Assembly: GCA_963836185.1 (NCBI GenBank)
Contig: CAWIIQ010000001.1
Span: forward strand, 2,250,874-2,314,873
Direction of reading: 5' to 3'
Source of the DNA: Candidatus Krumholzibacteriia bacterium
GTDB taxonomy: Bacteria > Krumholzibacteriota > Krumholzibacteriia > Krumholzibacteriales > Krumholzibacteriaceae
DNA length: 64,000 nucleotides
The notes below the pieces were generated by a model. The model saw nothing but the letters and a program-made list of their open reading frames with translations, did not search any database and was not told where the DNA came from. This document shows positions 28,763-41,883 of this stretch, one piece after another (the first letter of the stretch is position 1; each line of letters opens with the position of its first letter). Position numbers and translations under genes: made by a program.

Positions 28763-31700
28763 CTACAGCGCCAGTTTGATGTATCTGCTCAGCTTGGCTT
28801 TGAATCCGGAAAACGCCGGCATCATCTCATCGAGGGTCTGGAGATCTTCGACCCATGTCGATATGAGCAGCAGCTCTATCAGGTCGAGGAAAGCGACCGC
28901 CGCCCTCAATCCGGAAGTTACGAAAAGGACCTCTCCGTCCATGATCTTTCCGCGGTAATCCTGGTTCTGGGAACCGATGGTGAGGTACATCGACAGCTTC
29001 TCCAGTTCCCCCGGTTCTATAGCCCCGGCCCATTCCCGTATGAGCTTCCCGCTCCTGCGCGCGAGATGTTCCCTCAGTTCCTTCACGTCGACATAACTGT
29101 CCTCGTGAGCAGACTGCTCCGCCCTGGCGATCAGGTAGTCCCTGAAGAGGGGCCCCCATGCTTCGAGAGGAAGCAGTGTCTCCCCGACCTGCGGAGTATA
29201 GAAGAACTGCGCCTTGAGGTGGATCTTCGGCTTCCTCGCTACAGCATCCGCGGTAAGATGGGTGGTCCTGTATTCCTCTTCCTTCAGCATATCGATCGCT
29301 TCCTCGATATACCCCCTGACCGACTCGTGGGAAGGAAATACCTCGTGTATCCAGTCATACTCGTCCATATGCTTCAGCATCGCTTCTGCCCGTCCGACCT
29401 GGTCCTGGACATCTCCGTCGTAATTATAGACTCCGAGCCTGAATCGTCCTCCCACCTGCTCGAGTTCTTCGTCGAACACGTCCCTAAGAAGGACAAATCT
29501 GGTGAAGAGCTCGTTCGCTCTGGCCATCTGCGGGACACCGTCGCTCGGGGCATTGAGTAGCGAAGGAGCGATGACATGTATCCTGCATCCCCTCATCGCC
29601 GCGCCGTAAAGCATCGATCCCCAGAAGGTGCTGTTCCACAGAGAATCGGGGATAAGCATGAATGAACCGGACGGCATCAGGTTGTAGAGGACTCCCTTGA
29701 CCACGTTATCCCATTTCTGGTTGAACCCGGTATGATTGTGAAGCTGCATCGATGATGCGTTCCAACCATTCTCCACCAGGGCCTGGACCTTGTCGTCATA
29801 GTCGTCAGGCTTCGGCAGGGGCCTCAGCGGCTCGGGGATCTGATCGACCTTGAATCCCTGCTCGAGAAGGAGGTTCCTCGCCTCGGTCTTCAGATCGAGG
29901 ACGGCTGGTCCCCTCGCGAGAATCGCCCTGTCGTCCCAGGTCGCCCCGGCGTAGTGCTCGCCGACACCCATCCCCGTGAACATCCCCTCGCCCCTGCCCG
30001 GATCGAGTTCGGTGAGATCGTAGAAGCTGATCTTCCTGTGGTCCCTGAAGAGGATGTCTGGCACGAAAAAGAGGTACTTGAACATGTTCGCGCTTCTGAA
30101 CGAGAAGTCGGCGGGATTCGTGATATTGATATGTACCTTTACGAGGTTTTTGAGCCACTTATCGCCGTATGCCTCACGCCCGGCGCTGAGAGTCTCGGAT
30201 GAATCGACAGCTGCGCGAAGCTCGTCCTGGAGACTCAGGATGTTCTCTTCCCATTCCTCGAATCCGTCGGGAAGATCTACCTTCCTGTCTAGAGGATCCT
30301 CGAGGAACTCGAGCCAGAGCTTGCCGTTTCCAGCCTCGAAATAGAACTGGTCGAGGATGACAGTCAGAACAGGCATCTTTCCCGTTCTGTCGAACTCTCT
30401 GACATTCTGGATGATCGCCTTGAGGTATCCGCCTGTCGACATCCTGTACCCGATCAGGTCCGGGTCACCGAGATTGTTCGTCCCCCTGTAATCGTGGATC
30501 CAGAGGACATGATAGTCCTCAGCCGCATGGATCATCCTCGCCAGCTCCCACTGGAACTGCTCGTTTATGACATAGTGCAGGTCGTTGCCGGTAGTAAATC
30601 CCTTGCCTACCGCCCTCTCGATGATCGCGTCAAGTTCGGCCCTGGTGTCGTGCTGATCGGTGTCGAACGAATAGTTAAGTGGAAGCCAGACGAGCCTCGA
30701 ATCCTGCCAGTTCTTTTTCAGAGCCTTGCGATTAGTTTCGACAATGTCGATAAGCCCGGCGAAGAGATAGTTCAGCGCTTTGTACTCATCTGCGTTGACA
30801 TCGAAGCGGGGCTGGATCGAATCGGCAAATTTCTTCTTCGCCTCGATGGCCAGGCCGAGGATCGTCTCGTCTTTCTTCCGTTGTCCCAGCAGCCTGTTAT
30901 ACGGGAGCAGTATCTCGTCGAGGAGCACCTCCCTCGCCAGGTCCGCCGTCTCCGATCCAAGTTCTTTGTCACCTCCGCAGGCGATCAAGAAAAGCTTTCT
31001 TCAGTTTTCTGTGATATGCGTTGATGACAGCGTTGAATGTATGTCCCTCAGGATGATCCTCGTCGGTCGTGTGGAAATATTCTCTTGAATTCAGCGACAC
31101 CTTCTTCGATCTTCTCTATGTGTTCTTCTTCTTCGAGATTGAACTCTTCGTCTGAGAAGAAGGTCGTATAGTCCTGGATATCGAAAGCCGGTCCTTCGAT
31201 CTGTTTGATGGCCGCCGTGAGATCGGCTGAAGGTGCGAACTCAGGATCCTTCTTCCTGCTTTTTCCAGGAAGAGATACGTGAGCTCGTTTAGGTCTGGTC
31301 TTGCCCATCCAGGGCTGGCCGATAGGTATGTTGACCCCGAAATTGAATGTATTCTCCCGGCCGGGGAGCCAGTCGACCCGGAAATCCCCACCCTGGCCGA
31401 AGAGCCCGCCACGCCTGAGAGGGAACTGGATCGACCATATCGAGCTCCAGTCCTCTTCTGTTATCGAATAGTCGGCACCGCCAGCGAACATGAAGAATTT
31501 CATCTGGCCCATCAGCCTCAGGCCGGCTGTTCCCTCACCGTTTGACTGGCCGCCATATGCCTCGAAGAGCGCGCCGATTATACCCATGTTGGGATTGAGC
31601 AGATCCCTGTAGACGGAGAGATTGAACTCCACTCCGCTCTGTGTACCCTCTCCCTCGCCGTCGAGGACATAAGATACGCCGACCCTGGGCATCCATTTCG

Positions 31701-34842: not shown

Positions 34843-35835
34843 ATGGAAAAAGTAGGACGCATAAATGCCATAAGGCTTTATCTGCGGGGGAATCTCAATT
34901 TCCTCCTGGGCAGGCCTCTTGTCGTCTCGTTCGAGGTGACCTCGTCGTGCAACGCCGACTGCAGGCACTGCGACAAGGGCGGGATCATCAAGGATGAGAA
35001 GCACCTCTCTCCCGATGAGATCGGCGCCATATACCGGAAGCTCAAGCCGGTCGCAGTGCAGCTCTCCGGGGGCGAGCCCCTCCTCAGAAAAGACATCATC
35101 GAGATAGTGCGGGCGATCAAGGAGAAGGGCGGAGCCCCCTACCTGATCCTCGTCTCCAACGGCCGGCTCCTGACAAAGGAGAAGTACCTCGCCCTCAAGG
35201 AGGCGGGCGTCGACCAGATCTCGATCTCCCTCGACTATCCGGACGAGAGGCACGACGAGTTCAGGAAGATACCGGGGCTCTTCAACTATCTCGAGCAGAT
35301 AGTCCCTCAGCTTACAGCCGAGGGGAACAACGACATCGCGATCAATACGGCGATATCGAGAGAAAACATGACCTCCCTGAGGATGATCTGCGACAGGGCG
35401 GAGGAATGGGGAGCGCAGATATCGTACAGCGCCTACTCCTCGCTCAGAACCGGGGACACATCTCTCTCGATCAGCAGCGAAGAGGACCTGCGGACACTCA
35501 GGGCGGCCATCGATGAGCTGCAGGAGATGAAGAGGGCGGGGCGCAGGATCAGAAATACACCCGCGATCCTCGAGAACACGTACGGGTTCTTCCGCGACGG
35601 CGGGGTCCCGGGGTGCAAGGCGGGATACAGGTTCCTCCTCGTGACGCCGGAAGGTTATCACAGGCCCTGCGCGCACAAGCGCCTGAAGTACGGGTCCCAG
35701 AAGGAGCTGATCGAGAACTTCTCGAGGAACAATAATTGCGGCGGATGCTACGTGGCGATAAGGAGCTACTGCGACAAGTCGTACTTCGACCTCACCAAAG
35801 AGCAGATCATCGCGCGCCTGATGCACCAGACGTAG
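34843..35835 (+). CDS. Radical SAM enzyme with SPASM/twitch-like C-terminus
   Basis: CNADCRHC, SGGEPLL, SNG, ISLD; C-terminal CKAG...PC...CGGC. Confidence 0.9.
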   Translation: MEKVGRINAIRLYLRGNLNFLLGRPLVVSFEVTSSCNADCRHCDKGGIIKDEKHLSPDEIGAIYRKLKPVAVQLSGGEPLLRKDIIEIVRAIKEKGGAPYLILVSNGRLLTKEKYLALKEAGVDQISISLDYPDERHDEFRKIPGLFNYLEQIVPQLTAEGNNDIAINTAISRENMTSLRMICDRAEEWGAQISYSAYSSLRTGDTSLSISSEEDLRTLRAAIDELQEMKRAGRRIRNTPAILENTYGFFRDGGVPGCKAGYRFLLVTPEGYHRPCAHKRLKYGSQKELIENFSRNNNCGGCYVAIRSYCDKSYFDLTKEQIIARLMHQT

Positions 35836-35861
35836 GGCGCGTTCTTATGAAAGAGATCAAC

Positions 35862-35891
35862 AAAAAAAGGGCGGCCTCCTGGCCGCCCTTT
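35862..35891. terminator. Probably bidirectional terminator between the two convergent radical SAM genes
   Basis: A7-GGGCGGCC-TCCT-GGCCGCCC-TTT. Confidence 0.8.
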
Positions 35892-35916
35892 CCATTATCG
35901 GTCTCTGTCACCTCTG

Positions 35917-37672
35917 TCAGGCATCCGCCCCTCTTTTACGGGCCTTCCATTCATCCATCGAGATCGAGTACTTCTTCTCGATCCTCTCACGGTGGACCGG
36001 CCCGGAGTTGTAGGCGCAGAACGGGTAGAGGCCCTCTGGCGTCGAGTAATGGATCACGCAGCGCTTGACCCTCTCCACGTCGTAGTTGTACCTGTCCTGG
36101 AAGTGCATCGCCGCCGCCATAAGGGTGCGGTATGTCGTCTCCCCGGTCTTCCCCCTGCCCGTGCCCTTGTCGGTAAGCCCTTTGAGGGTATGCATGAACA
36201 TCTTGACGTCCATCCCCGCGGGAGCTTTTTTCGGGTCGAAGTATTTGCGGAAAAGACCCGGGACCCTGAGCTTGTAGAAGAAGGAGAAGCGTGAACTCTC
36301 TATCTTTTCGGCCAGTTCCTCCATCTCGGTGAAGAGCCCCTCGACATCGAAGAACCTCGTTATCGGCACGGCGTTGTGATCCTTGTCGACGACAAAATAT
36401 GTCCCTGCCGAGCAGCAGGGATGAGAGGTAGCTGTGATCTTGGGATCGCCTGTCACCGCTGCCAGCAGCCTCGAAATAGGCGAGACCATCGAAAGGGGAT
36501 AGAAATCCCTGCCGACCTCCGTCAGGCCCGTCCTGGAGATCTCCTCGGCCAGGTCGCCCATCGTGTAGCGCTGGCTCTCCCTCTCCTCTGTCGATATCCT
36601 GCCGGTAAAGGCGACCGGCTGGTAGGCGATCGCCGAGACGACATGGATATTGTCGATGGCGAACTGCAGGATCTTCGGCACCTGGTCGTCGTTGATCCCT
36701 TTGACGATCGTCGGGACGAGACAGGCCTTCATACCGGCCTTGTGGATGTTCTCGAGCGCCTTGCGCTTGATGTCCATCAGCTTCCTGCCCCTGGTGAACT
36801 CGTAGACCTCGTCATCTACCCCGTCGAACTGCAGGTAGACGGTATGCAGTCCCGCTTCAGCGCATTTCTCGGCGAATCCGGGCTCCGCGAGGGTTATCCC
36901 GTTGCTCGCTATCTGGATATGGCTGAATCCCATATCCCTCGCTGTGCTTATGATCCGCAGAAATTCGGGATGGATCGTCGGTTCGCCGCCGGAGAACTGT
37001 ACAGCCGAAGCCGGTGTCGGCTTGTAGTCGCGCAGCGTCCTGAGCAATTGTACGATCTCATCGAAGCCGGGCTCATATATATAACCGGCGACGCTTGAGT
37101 TGGCGAAGCATATCGGGCAGGCGAGGTTGCACCTGTTCGTAAGGTCGACCTGGCCGAGAAGGGTATGGCTCTGGTGCATGTTGCAGATCCCGCAGTCAGC
37201 CGGGCAGTCTACCGCATCGGTGACGACCGGGTTCTCGAGCCCTCTTCCCTCCTTGAAGGACCACTCCTGCATCTTGAGGTAAAGAGCGGTGTTTGTCATG
37301 ACCCTGTCCCTGCAGTATCCGTGATCGGGGCATGTCTTTTCCATGTAGACATTACCGCGCCAGTCGTAGACCCGGCCGATCACCTTCCGGCCGCATTCGG
37401 GGCAGAGAGTCTCCACCGACTTGGGAAGAAGGCGTACAACCGGATTTATCCGGGACCCGGTATATGTCTGGATAGCATCTTCTGCCTCTACGAAGAGCCT
37501 GTCGTTCAGCTTCTCTTCCATGCGGCCGTGCTCGGGACAGTTCTTCTCGATGAAAGACCTCCCCGCTCTTCCAGACCATCATGCCTGGAACGACACGCTC
37601 ACACTCGAGACACTGGGTCTCGACATTAAGAGGCAGTCCGGCCTTGACCGGATCGAACTTCACTCCGGCCAT
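35917..37672 (-). CDS. Tetraether lipid synthase (Tes/GDGT-MAS)-like radical SAM enzyme (frameshift near 37554)
   Basis: LCPEC...KTCPDH, CPADCGICNMH, LTNRCNLACPICFAN, FSGGEPT, YLQFDG, HPCC, MHFQD..NYDVERVKRCVIHY..PFCAYN. Confidence 0.88.
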
Positions 37673-37847
37673 GAAGACCTTTCTTTCTACTTCTGCAGCT
37701 GACGGAGTAGCTCCGGTCTTCTGCGCGATTGTCGGGCGCAAATGTAGTCTCCGGAGGATTCATCATCAATTCCTTCCGATACCGGCCTCGAGGCGATGTC
37801 ACATACTAGTCTTGTTTCTGAAGCAAGAATTTCCGTTTAACCAGAGA

Positions 37848-37876
37848 ATGGTATTGAACGGCCGGGTGAAAGTCAA
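37848..37876 (-). promoter_or_regulatory. Possible sigma70 promoter for the Tes-like gene
   Basis: TTGACT-17 nt-TACCAT. Confidence 0.5.
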
Positions 37877-37903
37877 TATCAAAGAGAGATTTTTCCGGCG
37901 GGC

Positions 37904-38555
37904 TCAATACTCGATCAGCTCGTACCCGTCAGGCACGTAAAGCTCGAATTCGTCAGGGCCGACAGGCACTCCGGACTCCATTGAGCTCGAACTCGAAGAT
38001 GAGCAGATCCCCTGAATGCTCGCGAAAGACCACGAGCCTGGGAAGGAAATCGCCGGGGTCAAGCCCCAGCTCTATCATGGAGAAATACGGGGATATCTCA
38101 TCGGATGTCGGTACCATCTCGAGAATGATCAGGCCGTTCTCCTCCCCTTTCAGCGATATATCGAAATCCTCTTTCATGCCTGTCCCGCACGAGCCGAATC
38201 CGACTATCGACATGACCCTGTCAGTGCTCGAGCCTCCCAGCCTTACCTTCTGGATCTGCCTGATATGGGGCAGCACGGTCCAGGCGACATCCCCGTTTAC
38301 CACCGTACTCGTACTGTCGGGCGAGGTGAAGCGCCAGCTCAGCATGCCTGGCCGGAGAAATGTGAAATCACCGGATGATTCTTCCTTCTCGTCGAAGAGG
38401 GTAAAGACCTTGGTCTGCGTAAACCCTGCCCTCAGGGAAACGAGCGATTCCCTCGCCGCGCAGTGCGCGTCGAGCACATCGTCGAGCTGGAGTCCCTGCC
38501 CACGGGCTGGAGAAAAGAGAAGAAGAAAAACTGCCAGGAATATCGATACCTTCAT
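37904..38555 (-). CDS. LolA-like periplasmic carrier protein (C-terminal frameshift)
   Basis: Signal peptide; SLRAGFTQ...SSGDFTFLRPGMLSWRF..P; shifted tail DEFELYVPDGYELIEY. Confidence 0.8.
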
Positions 38556-38556
38556 A

Positions 38557-39222
38557 TCATTCCCCTCCCGAACGGCGCTTCTCTATGAGTTTCGAGATCC
38601 CTTTGATCGCGCCTATCAGGACTGTCGCTAGAAAGACGTAGAATATCGCCTTGTTAGAGAGCTTCAGCTCGTATCCGAGCCAGGCGAGCAGAAGGTAGCG
38701 GGGGAACCGGCCGGCAAAGGTGGCCAGCGTGTACTTCACCCTCGAGTACCCGGTGGATACGGCCAGTATCCGCACTATATCTATCGGGATCGGCACGAAC
38801 GAAGCAATCGTCAGTGTCAGGAAAGGAGCCCTCTCGAACCACTTCACCGCGCTGAGATAGAACCCCCTCTTCTTAACCTTCCCGATGCGGTCAAGGCCGA
38901 AGAGATAGTTGAGTATATAGTAGTCGTGAAGGTTGGCCATGCAGGTCCCCGCGGCGGCAATCAGCGCGACGCTCAGAGGATCGGTCTCCCGCGCCGCCCA
39001 GAGAATGATCCACGCGGTAGGCAGGGGCAGAAAGGTGCACGCCACACTGGTGTAGAGCAGAAGCAGCAGCATTATCTCGAACGGGGCAAACGAGTCGACT
39101 TCGCGGCTCAGCAGGTAGAGTGCCCCCGCCGCGACGAGGAATACGGCGAAAGAAGCGATCCATCTCTTCGCCGAGATATCACGCGTTTCCCGGATCACGG
39201 CCGCGTCGGGACATTCGCTCAT
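38557..39222 (-). CDS. VTT/DedA (SNARE-associated) family membrane protein
   Basis: FLPLPT...AAAGTC...VPIPIDIVR...GRFPRY. Confidence 0.8.
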   Translation of the reverse strand: MSECPDAAVIRETRDISAKRWIASFAVFLVAAGALYLLSREVDSFAPFEIMLLLLLYTSVACTFLPLPTAWIILWAARETDPLSVALIAAAGTCMANLHDYYILNYLFGLDRIGKVKKRGFYLSAVKWFERAPFLTLTIASFVPIPIDIVRILAVSTGYSRVKYTLATFAGRFPRYLLLAWLGYELKLSNKAIFYVFLATVLIGAIKGISKLIEKRRSGGE

Positions 39223-39899
39223 GCCCCCGCTCCTTCTCCGTCTACAGTCATTCCATCCTTCATCTCGATTATCCTGTCGGTCATCGAGGCGAGCGTCCGG
39301 TCATGTGTGATCATGAGTATCGTGTGCCCGTGATCGGAGCTCATCGCCCTGAACAGGTCCATGATGTTGAGCGAGTTCTCGGAGTCGAGATTTCCGGTAG
39401 GCTCATCGGCGAGCAGTATCTTCGGCTCCTTGATAAGGGCGCGTGCGACGGCCACTCTCTGCTGCTCTCCCTGGGAGAGATCGAGCGGCCTCATGTCCAT
39501 CTTGTGCTCCAGCCCGACACGCTCGAGCATCGCACTGATACGGCTTTCGGCGCCGCCGAGCCTCCCCTGGATCCTGCACGCGATCCTGAGGTTATCGTAT
39601 ACGCTGAGCGCGCCGATCAGGTTGAACTTCTGGAAGACGAACCCGATATTTTCGCGCCTGAACGCCGTGAGCTGTGAATCGCTCGCTCCCGTGATATCAA
39701 AACCATCGATCTCGGCACTTCCCGATGTGGCCTTCAGAAGGCCGCCGAGAAGGTAGAGCAGGGTCGACTTTCCGCACCCCGACGGACCGGCCACCGCGGT
39801 GAATCCGCCCTCATCGATCTCGAAGTCGACGCCCCTGAGGGCATGCACGACTACCCTTCCCGTCCTGTAATCCTTATTGAGATCTTTTACCCTTATCAT
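39219..39899 (-). CDS. ABC transporter ATP-binding protein (LolD/MacB-like)
   Basis: GPSGCGKST, IGFVFQKFNL, LSQGEQQRV, LADEPTGNLD. Confidence 0.93.
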   Translation of the reverse strand: MIRVKDLNKDYRTGRVVVHALRGVDFEIDEGGFTAVAGPSGCGKSTLLYLLGGLLKATSGSAEIDGFDITGASDSQLTAFRRENIGFVFQKFNLIGALSVYDNLRIACRIQGRLGGAESRISAMLERVGLEHKMDMRPLDLSQGEQQRVAVARALIKEPKILLADEPTGNLDSENSLNIMDLFRAMSSDHGHTILMITHDRTLASMTDRIIEMKDGMTVDGEGAGA

Positions 39900-39904
39900 A
39901 TTCC

Positions 39905-40999
39905 TTACTCGTAACTCAGTGCCTCGACCGCGTCGTGCCTGACTGCTATATACGCCGGATATAGAGCGCCGATGACTCCCCCGGCTATCCCGAGAAGGCT
40001 CCCGGTGACCATCCAGTATGCAGTGACCTCGATCGTCAGAAGCGGGTATACCATACCAAGGTACTTCACTGCCGCGAATGTCAGGATAAAACCGACTACG
40101 ACGCCGCAGACGGTCAGGATGACCGATTCGAGGAGGATGTTTCCCATTATGAAGGCCCTCGACGCGCCGAGTGACTTGAGGATGCCTATCTCCTTCGTAC
40201 GCTCCATTATAGTCGTATACATCGCCAGCAGGATGACCAGCAGGCTCACTATCAGGGTCGTCGCGGTGATCGCTCCGATGAATTCCTTCAGCCCGCTCAT
40301 CGAGTCAGCCATCTCGTCGGCGAAATTCTCGAGAAGCTGGCACTTCACACCCTTGATCTCCGATTCGATCCTTTGAGCAGTCGGCTTCACCGCTTCGGGC
40401 GAGTCGCACCTGACGAAGAACAGGGAGACCCTGTCCTCCTGATGAAGCATTGACTGGAGCTCGCTCTTGAGCATGAATATCCTCGCTCCGATCCCTTCCT
40501 TCGATATACCGACGATACCGAAGGAGGTTCCGAGCATCTCGATGTTGTCTCCGATGACCAGCCCTGTCGCGGCGGCCATCCTCGAGTCGATCACGATCTC
40601 TCCGTCGGCGGAAAGCTGCCTCCCCTCGACGATCTTCAGCTCGCCGCCTATCGTCGAGAACTGGGCAGGATCGATCCCGTAGACGACATAGAACTGGTTC
40701 CTGAATGTCGTCGTCCATGTGACGACCGGAGATACGGCGCTCACTCCTTCGACTTCCGATATCAGTTTTCCGTATTTCTCGGGGATTATGCCGCTCTTGA
40801 GGGCAAAGAAGTTAGTGGCGCCTGCCTGCTGGACGATCATGTCGCCCCCGACGTTCTGTATCCGTGACGCGACCTCGTTGATAGAGCCCCGAGTCATCCC
40901 CACGAGGACGAGCAGCAGGGTCACGCCGATGGCAACGGCCAGGATGCTGATCATGCTCCTGACCTTTCTCTGAAGTATATTGGCTAACGCGAGTGTCAC
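39905..40999 (-). CDS. ABC permease, FtsX/LolC-E/MacB family
   Basis: One TM helix, a periplasmic domain, then three TM helices; ERTKEIGILKSLGAS; EALSYE. Confidence 0.9.
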   Translation of the reverse strand: MTLALANILQRKVRSMISILAVAIGVTLLLVLVGMTRGSINEVASRIQNVGGDMIVQQAGATNFFALKSGIIPEKYGKLISEVEGVSAVSPVVTWTTTFRNQFYVVYGIDPAQFSTIGGELKIVEGRQLSADGEIVIDSRMAAATGLVIGDNIEMLGTSFGIVGISKEGIGARIFMLKSELQSMLHQEDRVSLFFVRCDSPEAVKPTAQRIESEIKGVKCQLLENFADEMADSMSGLKEFIGAITATTLIVSLLVILLAMYTTIMERTKEIGILKSLGASRAFIMGNILLESVILTVCGVVVGFILTFAAVKYLGMVYPLLTIEVTAYWMVTGSLLGIAGGVIGALYPAYIAVRHDAVEALSYE

Positions 41000-41883
41000 T
41001 CTTCATCGTCCTGGTCGAGCCTGATGACCTTCGTGCCGAGGGGCGCCTCGAACCTGAACGCCTCCGGCGGTATACCGGTCGGGTTCAGTGTCAGATCCCG
41101 TATCCTTATCGAGATCTCCCTGCCCGAATCGGGTTTGAATATCGTGATCTCCAGGGGATAATGCAAGCCGTCTGAAAGCGTATGCTTCGACCTGCGCAAC
41201 TCGAGGTCCTCCCCGCCAGCCGGATTGTAGTATTTTTCCATGACGACCGCGAACATCTTTTTTTCTATCCACAGCCTCCGCAGCAGGCTGCCGTCACGCG
41301 TCAGTGTAAGGATATAGACTCCCGACTCCTCGCTCAACCCTGCGACATCTGCCGGATCGAAGGGCTCGACGAAGAGCGCCCTCGACAGGTCCGCCGCCTC
41401 GAGATCGACCTCGGCCGTATCGGCAGTTTCCACCCGGTCGTACGGCCCGGAATAGACGACCTTCTCGCTCGGGATGTGCAGCCAGAACCCGGTACCGTCA
41501 CTCTTCAATGTGAAGAATGAAGGAATCAAATTCTTGTATCCCTTGAGGTATATCTTCGAGCCGATGCCTTCCCATTCGGATCTGAGCGCGACAAGTTTTC
41601 CCTGGCACCCCTTTACCTTTTCACCAGGTGCGCGAAGGAAGAACATGTCGAGGTCGGCCTTTATCCCACGCACGCTGCCAGACCGTGCGTTGATTCCATC
41701 GACCAGCTCTGCCGCAGTAGCCTCGAGCTCCGGCATCATCGTCGTGTCGACGGGTTCTACGTTCGGATCTCCAGCACAGCCGCAGGTGACAATGACAGTC
41801 AGCACGAAAAGGTTCCGGGCACGCGCCAGGACACGACCTGGAACAATATTACAATTTCTGGTGATCAATATCTCCTGCTTCAT
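40996..41883 (-). CDS. Putative lipoprotein with LolA/LolB-like fold (DUF4292-like)
   Basis: Lipobox TCGC; FFTLKSDGTGFWLHIPSEK; tail FRFEAPLGTKVI resembling the LolA C-terminus. Confidence 0.6.
   Translation of the reverse strand: MKQEILITRNCNIVPGRVLARARNLFVLTVIVTCGCAGDPNVEPVDTTMMPELEATAAELVDGINARSGSVRGIKADLDMFFLRAPGEKVKGCQGKLVALRSEWEGIGSKIYLKGYKNLIPSFFTLKSDGTGFWLHIPSEKVVYSGPYDRVETADTAEVDLEAADLSRALFVEPFDPADVAGLSEESGVYILTLTRDGSLLRRLWIEKKMFAVVMEKYYNPAGGEDLELRRSKHTLSDGLHYPLEITIFKPDSGREISIRIRDLTLNPTGIPPEAFRFEAPLGTKVIRLDQDDEE

Follow-up and report, generated by a model that had tools for sequence, protein, structure and literature searches.

The producers of brGDGTs, the enzymes that make them and the place of these lipids in the cell are open questions beneath widely used paleo-temperature proxies. 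A proposed route to brGDGTs combines PlsAR/Ger with the tetraether synthase Tes (accessible part of PMC10087280), and as of 2025 the production of membrane-spanning lipids by any bacterial Tes was still undemonstrated (PMC11868695). In the window, by which we mean the whole 64,000-nucleotide stretch of Candidatus Krumholzibacteriia DNA that was analysed, the gene for a Tes homolog follows five genes that resemble parts of the Lol lipoprotein-sorting machinery. The question raised by this locus is what such a cassette might carry, and in which direction. Judged from sequences and gene neighbourhoods, we read the cassette as an accessory Lol-like trafficking module tied to Tes/ether-lipid synthesis, and its cargo is probably some lipid; that this is a Tes-pathway lipid, taken from the inner membrane and brought to the outer one, strikes us as an evenly balanced proposition.

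All seven open reading frames lie where the first-pass annotation had placed them and were correctly annotated there. The tight coupling it saw among the five minus-strand genes is borne out by joints of -4 nt between the genes of a LolB-like lipoprotein (40996-41883) and a type VII ABC permease (39905-40999), +5 nt between the permease and a LolD/MacB-type ABC ATPase (39219-39899), -4 nt between the ATPase and a DedA/VTT membrane protein, a predicted flippase or scramblase (38557-39222), and +1 nt between the latter and a LolA-like periplasmic carrier (37904-38555; called ORF 37953-38555). The five genes had also been placed directly upstream of tes (minus strand, 35917-37766; called ORF 35917-37521); here the coupling holds, but a gap of about 140 nt lies between lolA and tes, while the two genes overlap at two other loci (L119 and L120). 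Since this gap holds a sigma70-like site (minus strand, 37848-37876; a consensus match only, with a similar -35 region in the relative G003), tes may have its own promoter in the window. The promoter scan gave 12 promoter-like sites against 5.8 expected, and any single site is therefore weak. The gene for a second radical SAM enzyme (plus strand, 34843-35835) converges on tes, and an intrinsic-terminator-like hairpin between them (35864-35893), called on the minus strand only, is plausibly a terminator common to both genes. Among the public sequencing runs, no RNA run was listed as containing the locus (all shares 0.13 or less). Membership of the RND-OMF genes further upstream (41953-47697) in the system was weighed and rejected: an RND system of another type is found at L113, and none at the other loci examined.

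The reading frames of tes and lolA are broken by one-base frameshifts near 37553 and near 37986, respectively. Assembly error is the likely cause, since both are absent from G003 and from the contigs of two public runs. Read through as in the relatives, tes starts at about 37765 and encodes about 614 residues, and lolA stops at 37904.

The Tes-like identity claimed at the outset is firmly supported. The window's protein, a long form with two N-terminal Zn-ribbons, scores 533 bits against NF045702 (cut-off 450) and 429 bits against the archaeal Tes/GDGT-MAS (PDB 7TOL). With the intact G003 orthologue aligned to 7TOL, reading by eye shows that the metal-ligand motifs of the M. jannaschii Tes are kept: three Cys and a His in the rubredoxin motif, three Cys and a His for the N-cluster, the radical SAM CxxxCxxC, and three Cys and a Met for the C-cluster, with the ligand types per cluster taken from PMC13459092. 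Bacterial Tes homologs are best described as candidate enzymes, predicted to couple lipid chain termini through C-C bonds. The second radical SAM enzyme, a protein of 330 residues with a C-terminal Cys motif, stays under every NCBIfam cut-off listed, and NCBIfam and structure comparison gave no close characterised family or solved enzyme. Its gene accompanies the Tes clade of the window and is also found with Tes-Ger in two Acidobacteriota; one genome (G043) has it without Tes.

The permease, which contains MacB_PCD and FtsX domains, has the features of a type VII ABC protein: it has four TM helices, its TM1 is followed by a large MacB-type periplasmic domain, and the ABC ATPase is a separate protein. 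Its earlier description as LolC/E-like is right as to the type VII class but not as to LolC/E proper. It scores 60.5 against TIGR02212, where 362 is needed, and its structural fit is closer to MacB-like proteins, YbbP and HrtB (TMq 0.61-0.64) than to LolC/E (0.38-0.54), a subfamily from which it stands apart. The ATPase matches ABC_tran and likewise remains below the LolD cut-off (TIGR02211, 210 vs. 308). A fold search on the permease model is equally compatible with the presence and the absence of the LolC hook/pad that recruits LolA, and the predicted complex of a permease dimer with the LolA-like protein (0.36, against 0.18 for the control) points neither way.

The LolA-like carrier has a signal peptide and matches PF03548 (42 vs. 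23.6); the LolA equivalog cut-off TIGR00547 is missed by the intact G003 orthologue (88 vs. 112). Scores against NF053544, the LolA2/LolB2 family of the flexirubin locus, also stay below the cut-off (53.5-60.7 vs. 125). The lipoprotein, which is DUF4292-related, has no Pfam match, but the LolA/B fold attributed to it appears in an AF2 model (pLDDT 75.9). The best VIA match of this model is the P. gingivalis LolB 9tpm (Z 18.7, rmsd 3.4, 222 aligned), in effect a tie with the LolA-like sorting protein ranked second, less than one Z unit behind. A regular expression found a lipobox-like Cys within residues 1-75 in 24 of 35 homologs; the protein probably starts slightly downstream of the ORF start and is a putative outer-membrane LolB-like receptor. 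The fourth protein carries the VTT domain PF09335 (36.4 vs. a cut-off of 33.9), and members of the DedA/VTT family act as flippases or scramblases. Its standing as a core part is not supported: among 80 permease loci just 10 have it, with a different DedA in three more, and it is absent from most relatives.

Does the cassette travel with Tes? Among 201 genomes of the window's own phylum, the permease (E<=1e-30) occurs in four, and in each of them a Tes of the long clade lies beside genes of the cassette, which are arranged in two different orders. The same four have close orthologues of the DedA protein (E<1e-80), while a PF03548 LolA occurs in five and nothing but a distant DedA in seven further genomes; in G130 the cassette is spread across two contigs. 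Four genomes of the same genus have neither Tes nor cassette and retain lolE. Among 121 Acidobacteriota, in which related genomes are not independent, a Tes homolog (E<=1e-40) is present in 47 of 48 permease-positive genomes compared with 29 of 73 permease-negative ones, and the permease lies within 10 kb of Tes in 8 of the 47, where about 0.2 would be expected. For the permease clade of the window, Tes is the constant partner (12/13 informative loci). Tes trees were built with FastTree on all rows and with IQ-TREE on 49 of 106; a single clade of the 21 cassette-linked Tes proteins is rejected (p-AU 3.5e-7), with at least five changes forced. The conserved neighbourhood on which the original proposal depended is thus seen across phyla, in differing gene orders and with unrelated Tes clades.

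Other counts weigh against a strict partnership. Of the 80 nearest Tes loci, many of them on short contigs, just 6 have cassette genes nearby and 74 do not, and 12 of 16 genomes with a Tes homolog in the phylum of the window have no permease match; with most Tes loci and Tes genomes lacking the cassette, a need of Tes for it is not supported. A sample of 150 Planctomycetota genomes, taken in addition to the centre genome, showed no co-occurrence: three genomes have Tes without the permease, three of the four permease matches beyond the centre genome belong to a different ABC subfamily without LolA, and the sole true cassette of that sample (G385) comes without a Tes match. At one locus (L121) the cassette is complete and Ger is present, yet 10 kb around it contain no Tes, and one genome (G027) has a cassette-type LolA without Tes. 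Two Bryobacteraceae MAGs contain the permease and ATPase, with DedA about 2 kb off, and have no adjacent LolA/LolB.

The neighbours of the cassette bear on what it carries. Ger/PlsA-type proteins adjoin it at L053, L121, L122, L126 and L132, and a match of this type is found at 34 of the 80 nearest Tes loci. The architecture of two PF01869 domains with PF09989 (BBD) was met in L122, L038 and L068; the domain set is defined in the accessible part of PMC13159169. The Ger-type homolog of the window's own genome is on contig C3, where a single stop interrupts the match. CDP-alcohol phosphatidyltransferases flank the cassette at several loci, and 25 of the 32 permease loci of at least 10 kb hold Tes, Ger, SPT-like, CDP-transferase or partner radical SAM genes. 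That genes for Ger/PlsA-type proteins, CDP-alcohol phosphatidyltransferases and other lipid functions lie beside the cassette adds to the case for a lipid cargo.

The likeness to Lol raises readings of a more familiar kind. One is that the cassette is the housekeeping Lol system, or stands beside tes by chance. In its favour, PF03548 matches no protein of the genome other than the cassette LolA, but this reading is scarcely credible and largely refuted. A separate lolE-lolD pair lies beside lysS (its permease scores 326 against the LolC/E cut-off of 362), so the cassette is not the sole housekeeping system. Moreover, lolE is present in 5/5 genomes of the genus, the distribution of the cassette is patchy, and the linkage to tes persists through different orders and Tes clades. 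Of the canonical Lol genes expected elsewhere, lolE-lolD was found and a second LolA was not. The host has the outer-membrane markers BamA and LpxC, and PF17131 proteins sit in other operons of its genome. A divergent housekeeping LolA was sought in five cassette-less relatives with a cassette-LolA profile, which gave only weak partial matches, in two of the five. Being the only PF03548 match, the cassette LolA might also do some lipoprotein work. We find it doubtful, and rather unlikely, that the cassette as a whole is a second lipoprotein-sorting pathway, one for a subset of lipoproteins or for ether-linked or tail-coupled anchors that Lgt would make from an altered phospholipid pool; in such a reading it may also supply the phylum's only recognisable LolA. 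Every transport part is of Lol type, the cassette LolA has no PF03548 companion in the window's genome, no lolA follows ftsK there, and the cassette adjoins ftsK, divergently, in G243 and G209. Yet there is one Lgt each in 5/5 genomes, cassette-bearing or not, with no Lgt paralog as a partner; no dedicated cargo lipoprotein gene recurs at the loci examined; the permease resembles MacB-like proteins, YbbP and HrtB more than LolC/E; and cassette-positive Acidobacteriota retain a separate LolA and lolC/E.

Two further readings accept a lipid and change its nature or its direction. The cassette could export specialty membrane lipids in general (sphingolipid-like ones, ether lipids or phospholipids with unusual head groups), with Tes as one of several paired pathways, and carry here a lipid that does not span the membrane, for instance a diether or whatever the second radical SAM enzyme produces; we consider this reading possible, though on the unlikely side. 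A distant permease clade adjoins SPT-like, SDR, acyltransferase, DAGK and CDP-transferase genes, and the SPT-like, acyltransferase and DAGK neighbours point to a sphingolipid-like cargo in that clade. A small radical SAM gene, belonging to one of three families that are about 25% alike, stands beside 35 of 80 permease loci, and Mla genes adjoin the cassette at L139, L144 and L253. This breadth has to be set against the constancy of Tes in the window's own permease clade and the nesting of the permease within Tes-positive Acidobacteriota. Alternatively, an inward or recycling module would bring exogenous or outer-membrane lipids, for example diethers, to the inner membrane, where DedA would flip them to cytoplasmic Tes. 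Direction is not given by gene linkage, and DedA scramblases work both ways. Such a module is nonetheless very unlikely, as the characterised type VII ABC systems LolCDE, MacB and YbbAP extract or push outward (accessible part of PMC12646458), and heme export by HrtBA is outward as well (PDB entry titles).

In the preferred reading, that of a Tes-linked route to the outer membrane, a Ger/PlsA-type enzyme encoded elsewhere in the genome would make alkyl-ether lipids, and cytoplasmic Tes would couple chains at two of their ends, giving a lipid that is macrocyclic or spans the membrane and that the second radical SAM enzyme may tailor. The DedA protein would flip the head group across to the leaflet facing the periplasm, the permease, which probably forms a homodimer, would use ATP to extract the lipid and load the LolA-like carrier, and the LolB-like lipoprotein would place it in the outer membrane. 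A bolaform chain in extended form is a less likely cargo than a folded tetraether or a macrocyclic diether with one head. What stands of the dedicated lipid-export pathway first suggested is the co-occurrence with Tes and the non-housekeeping nature; an indispensable DedA and a specifically bolaform cargo are not supported. We would only tentatively propose that bacterial ether lipids of the membrane-spanning kind (brGDGT-type) have here a first transport route of their own, in which DedA would set them across the inner membrane and an ATP-driven Lol-type relay would deliver them to the outer one. The literature covered, main texts with few subscription papers among them, held no description of such a cassette and no statement on membrane-spanning bacterial lipids reaching the outer membrane.

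The locus and its relatives link Tes both to an enzyme for ether bonds and to a full relay for transport through the periplasm, and because this relay includes soluble carrier proteins, the bound lipid should be directly readable by mass spectrometry. A Lol-type ABC/LolA/LolB system that carries lipid and not lipoprotein would, if true, be a new lipid route from the inner to the outer membrane. Together with the Tes-Ger linkage, the tentatively proposed brGDGT-type route would complete a set of genes for both making and delivering the brGDGTs, orphan biomarkers of paleoclimate, in Acidobacteriota and other sediment bacteria.

It is instructive to place the locus among known systems. The window Tes shares the ligand motifs of archaeal Tes (7TOL), and its genome has a Ger-type gene, as in the PlsAR/Ger plus Tes route; it differs from the archaeal enzyme in its bacterial host with fatty-acyl chains, its extra N-terminal Zn-ribbon and its activity, which is predicted. 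The accessible part of PMC10087280 proposes no transport step for that route. For lipid handling by LolA/B-fold or type VII proteins there are precedents (accessible parts of PMC11885536, PMC10576003 and PMC12646458). LolCDE-LolA-LolB (E. coli; P. gingivalis LolB 9tpm) likewise unites an ABC transporter of type VII, a LolA-fold carrier and a LolB-fold lipoprotein. The cassette, in contrast, fails the LolC/E and LolD cut-offs, has one permease gene and an added DedA, and is patchily distributed alongside lipid enzymes in a host with a separate lolE-lolD. In F. johnsoniae, LolA2/LolB2 are confined to the flexirubin locus and proposed to carry its lipid-like product, and are thus likewise a LolA/LolB pair at a lipid-like biosynthesis locus (accessible part of PMC11885536). 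The cassette belongs to another sequence family, has its own type VII ABC and DedA, and is partnered by Tes/Ger and not by a polyketide pigment pathway; the window contains no flexirubin genes. LprG of mycobacteria is LolA-like. In the Rv1410-LprG system, an inner-membrane transporter passes a membrane lipid, TAG, to a periplasmic lipoprotein carrier, a kind of hand-over that the cassette might also perform, although Rv1410 is a proton-coupled MFS protein and not an ABC transporter, with a single carrier, another lipid and another envelope (accessible part of PMC10576003). YbbAP-TesA and HrtBA (PDB 9ge6 and 7w78), whose structures are among the best fits to the permease, are type VII systems that lift hydrophobic molecules from the membrane (accessible part of PMC12646458); the TesA of the former is an unrelated thioesterase and not a tetraether synthase. 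Their partner is a hydrolase or none, whereas the cassette has a LolA/LolB relay.

The cassette of five minus-strand genes beside the tetraether synthase (Tes) gene lies on contig C1 of a 3.5 Mb genome, G000, which is 92.5% complete and whose BamA and LpxC mark the host as a diderm. The tight coupling read from the first-pass annotation (gaps of -4 to +5 nt) was borne out, with joints of -4, +5, -4 and +1 nt. The genes encode a lipoprotein without a Pfam match, a MacB_PCD/FtsX permease, an ABC ATPase, a VTT (DedA) protein and a PF03548 LolA; the gap of ~140 nt between lolA and tes holds a promoter-like site. Both tes and lolA carry a one-base frameshift, likely an assembly error in each case, since other genes of the same assembly are split likewise and neither shift is seen in G003, a relative with both genes intact, or in contigs from two public runs. 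Directly upstream of the cassette is an RND efflux operon (window positions 41953-47697), whose AcrB-like gene has a frameshift near 44270; a membrane gene of the GT-C/PMT type lies divergently at 47854-49473. L113, a homologous locus, has a similar GT-C gene and a different RND in the same position. Elsewhere in the window, the stretch at 52000-58000 is lower in G+C (0.51-0.53), lacks convincing ORFs and is by appearance a candidate rRNA operon, and a 741-aa ORF without a Pfam match (28763-30988) adjoins POTRA/BamA-like fragments.

The gene after the cassette passes the 450-bit cut-off of the Tes model with 533 bits. Its intact orthologue, aligned to M. jannaschii Tes (7TOL), reaches 429 bits and keeps the metal-ligand motifs. 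The second radical SAM enzyme, encoded by the gene converging on tes, matched no curated family. The predicted model of the lipoprotein has a LolA/LolB fold, with P. gingivalis LolB as its top match (Z 18.7, rmsd 3.4, 222 aligned), and 17-20% of the members of the Atlas clusters grouped with it carry DUF4292. The permease had been called LolC/E-like. Its model (pLDDT 86.9) is indeed of type VII, but membership in LolC/E did not hold: it scores 60 against the LolC/E model, where the cut-off is 362, and a streptococcal MacB-like protein, YbbP and HrtB (TMq 0.64, 0.62 and 0.61) fit better than LolC/E (0.38-0.54).

It had also been pointed out that the cassette might be the sole housekeeping Lol system of the genome. 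It is not the housekeeping system, as G000 has a lolE-lolD pair beside lysS (326 bits), separate from the cassette. lolE is retained in four same-genus genomes without the cassette; among 121 Acidobacteriota, 118 have PF03548 LolA, in many cassette-bearing ones with the top match outside the cassette, and all five tested have a separate lolC/E. It should be noted that PF03548 LolA is found in only 5 of the 201 genomes of the window's phylum, the cassette LolA being the sole match in G000; the other 196 are without it, yet lolE is kept in five same-genus genomes tested. No lolA follows ftsK in G000 (C1:1836411-1839042), where rimO comes directly after it, and no housekeeping lipoprotein carrier of the host lineage was recognised via PF03548 or at this ftsK. 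In two Acidobacteriota with a separate LolA, the cassette adjoins ftsK divergently (L241:10554-13898; L231:5945-9240).

The expected co-occurrence with Tes held in the window's phylum and in Acidobacteriota, but not in the Planctomycetota sample or in most of the nearest Tes loci. Tes homologs occur in 16 of the 201 phylum genomes and the permease in four, the same four that have close DedA orthologues. In all four, a long, two-ribbon Tes clade adjoins the cassette genes, ordered as in the window or as tes-rSAM-lipoprotein-permease-ATPase-DedA (G130 is split over two contigs). In a further genome, the same-class relative G126, the run ATPase-lolA-tes borders an N gap; no cassette gene was found near the other 11 phylum Tes homologs. 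Outside this sample, full cassettes adjoin Tes at L026 (Acidobacteriota) and L053 (Chlamydiota), and L046 (Eisenbacteria) has lipoprotein-tes-lolA. The inverted second radical SAM gene and the IS integrase upstream of tes at L026:4205-8831 suggest a recent rearrangement or transfer there. Eight of 80 metagenomic permease loci contain Tes and a ninth terminates in its N-terminus (L119 and L120 are near-copies of each other); within the window's permease clade, Tes is present in 12 of the 13 loci with informative flanks, six short contigs left out, the exception being L121. DedA is found in 10 of the 80 permease loci and another DedA in three, a small membrane protein often standing in its stead. 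This protein, elsewhere located between the ATPase and lolA, is by eye apparently fused to the LolA N-terminus at L228:9518-10327, L229:6778-7575 and L230:9819-10607; the fusions adjoin a long (~700 aa) Tes-like gene, and a polyprenyl synthetase lies inside the L229 cassette.

In the 121 Acidobacteriota, a Tes homolog is present in 47 of the 48 genomes with the permease and in 29 of the 73 without it, in a sample whose centre genome was reached through Tes, whose kin are not independent and whose 29 include the unpublished G232. Counting only Tes over the cut-off, 17 of 24 genomes are permease-positive. Tes and permease lie within 10 kb of each other in 8 cases versus ~0.2 expected (20 of 48 regions inspected in full). 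Among 150 sampled Planctomycetota, three Tes genomes were without the permease and the one true cassette without a Tes match; both are present in the centre genome, G206, at a distance of 63 kb. Of the 80 nearest Tes loci, only 6 have cassette genes close to Tes and 74 do not, so Tes does not require the cassette in its vicinity. A single clade of the 21 cassette-linked Tes was rejected (p-AU 3.5e-7; at least 5 changes needed) on a tree taking in 49 of 106 Tes rows, a pattern that may reflect repeated pairing or an old pairing frequently lost, both of which fit the tree.

Lipid enzymes recur around these genes. A protein of 1,420 aa carrying the BBD domain set, which defines Ger in PMC13159169, adjoins the cassette in five loci, and CDP-alcohol phosphatidyltransferases are found repeatedly beside it. 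Of the 80 nearest Tes loci, 34 match a profile of this Ger-type protein, in many cases solely through a separately encoded C-terminal part; G000 has such a gene on contig C3, as do 80 of the 201 phylum genomes. This context fits the proposal in PMC10087280 that Solibacter brGDGTs are made by PlsAR and then Tes; bacterial Tes activity was unconfirmed as of PMC11868695. In the 34 loci, tes adjoins the Ger/PlsA-type gene, often in one run (examples from L028-L099 are L038:5195-11830, L065:9980-16096 and L068:3526-9917). They span Planctomycetota, Acidobacteriota and Glassbacteria, the planctomycete ones adding a 560-aa SPASM radical SAM gene. At the level of gene order, this adjacency is direct genomic support for the putative Ger plus Tes route to brGDGTs. 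A distant permease clade, with no ATPase or LolA beside it, adjoins an SPT-like enzyme (top PDB match Sphingobacterium SPT, 303 bits; under the NCBIfam cut-off), an acyltransferase, a DAGK-like protein and another radical SAM gene. At L160:2420-11848, L164, L190, L192 and similar loci, this permease relative lies divergently from a cluster encoding radical SAM, SDR, SPT-like, DAGK-like, acyltransferase and CDP-alcohol phosphatidyltransferase proteins, which may form a sphingolipid pathway of soil bacteria.

The cassette is a real and conserved Lol-like module, apparently undescribed, that is coupled to Tes and ether-lipid synthesis. Its cargo is quite probably a lipid, since the parts make a complete outward relay and the steady neighbours are lipid enzymes; of the single readings, the product of the Tes pathway ranks first, at about even chances. 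Because Tes is cytoplasmic, its product would at first have its head groups on the inner face. These would be flipped by DedA, the ABC transporter would extract the lipid, and the LolA-like and LolB-like proteins would ferry and then insert it. In the article texts searched, neither the cassette nor any transporter that moves bacterial membrane-spanning lipids turned up, in line with the earlier statement that no described one was known. The nearest precedents are Rv1410-LprG, YbbAP-TesA and the LolA2/LolB2 pair of the flexirubin locus, put forward in PMC11885536 as the authors' candidate for the first pathway-specific pair, with a predicted role.
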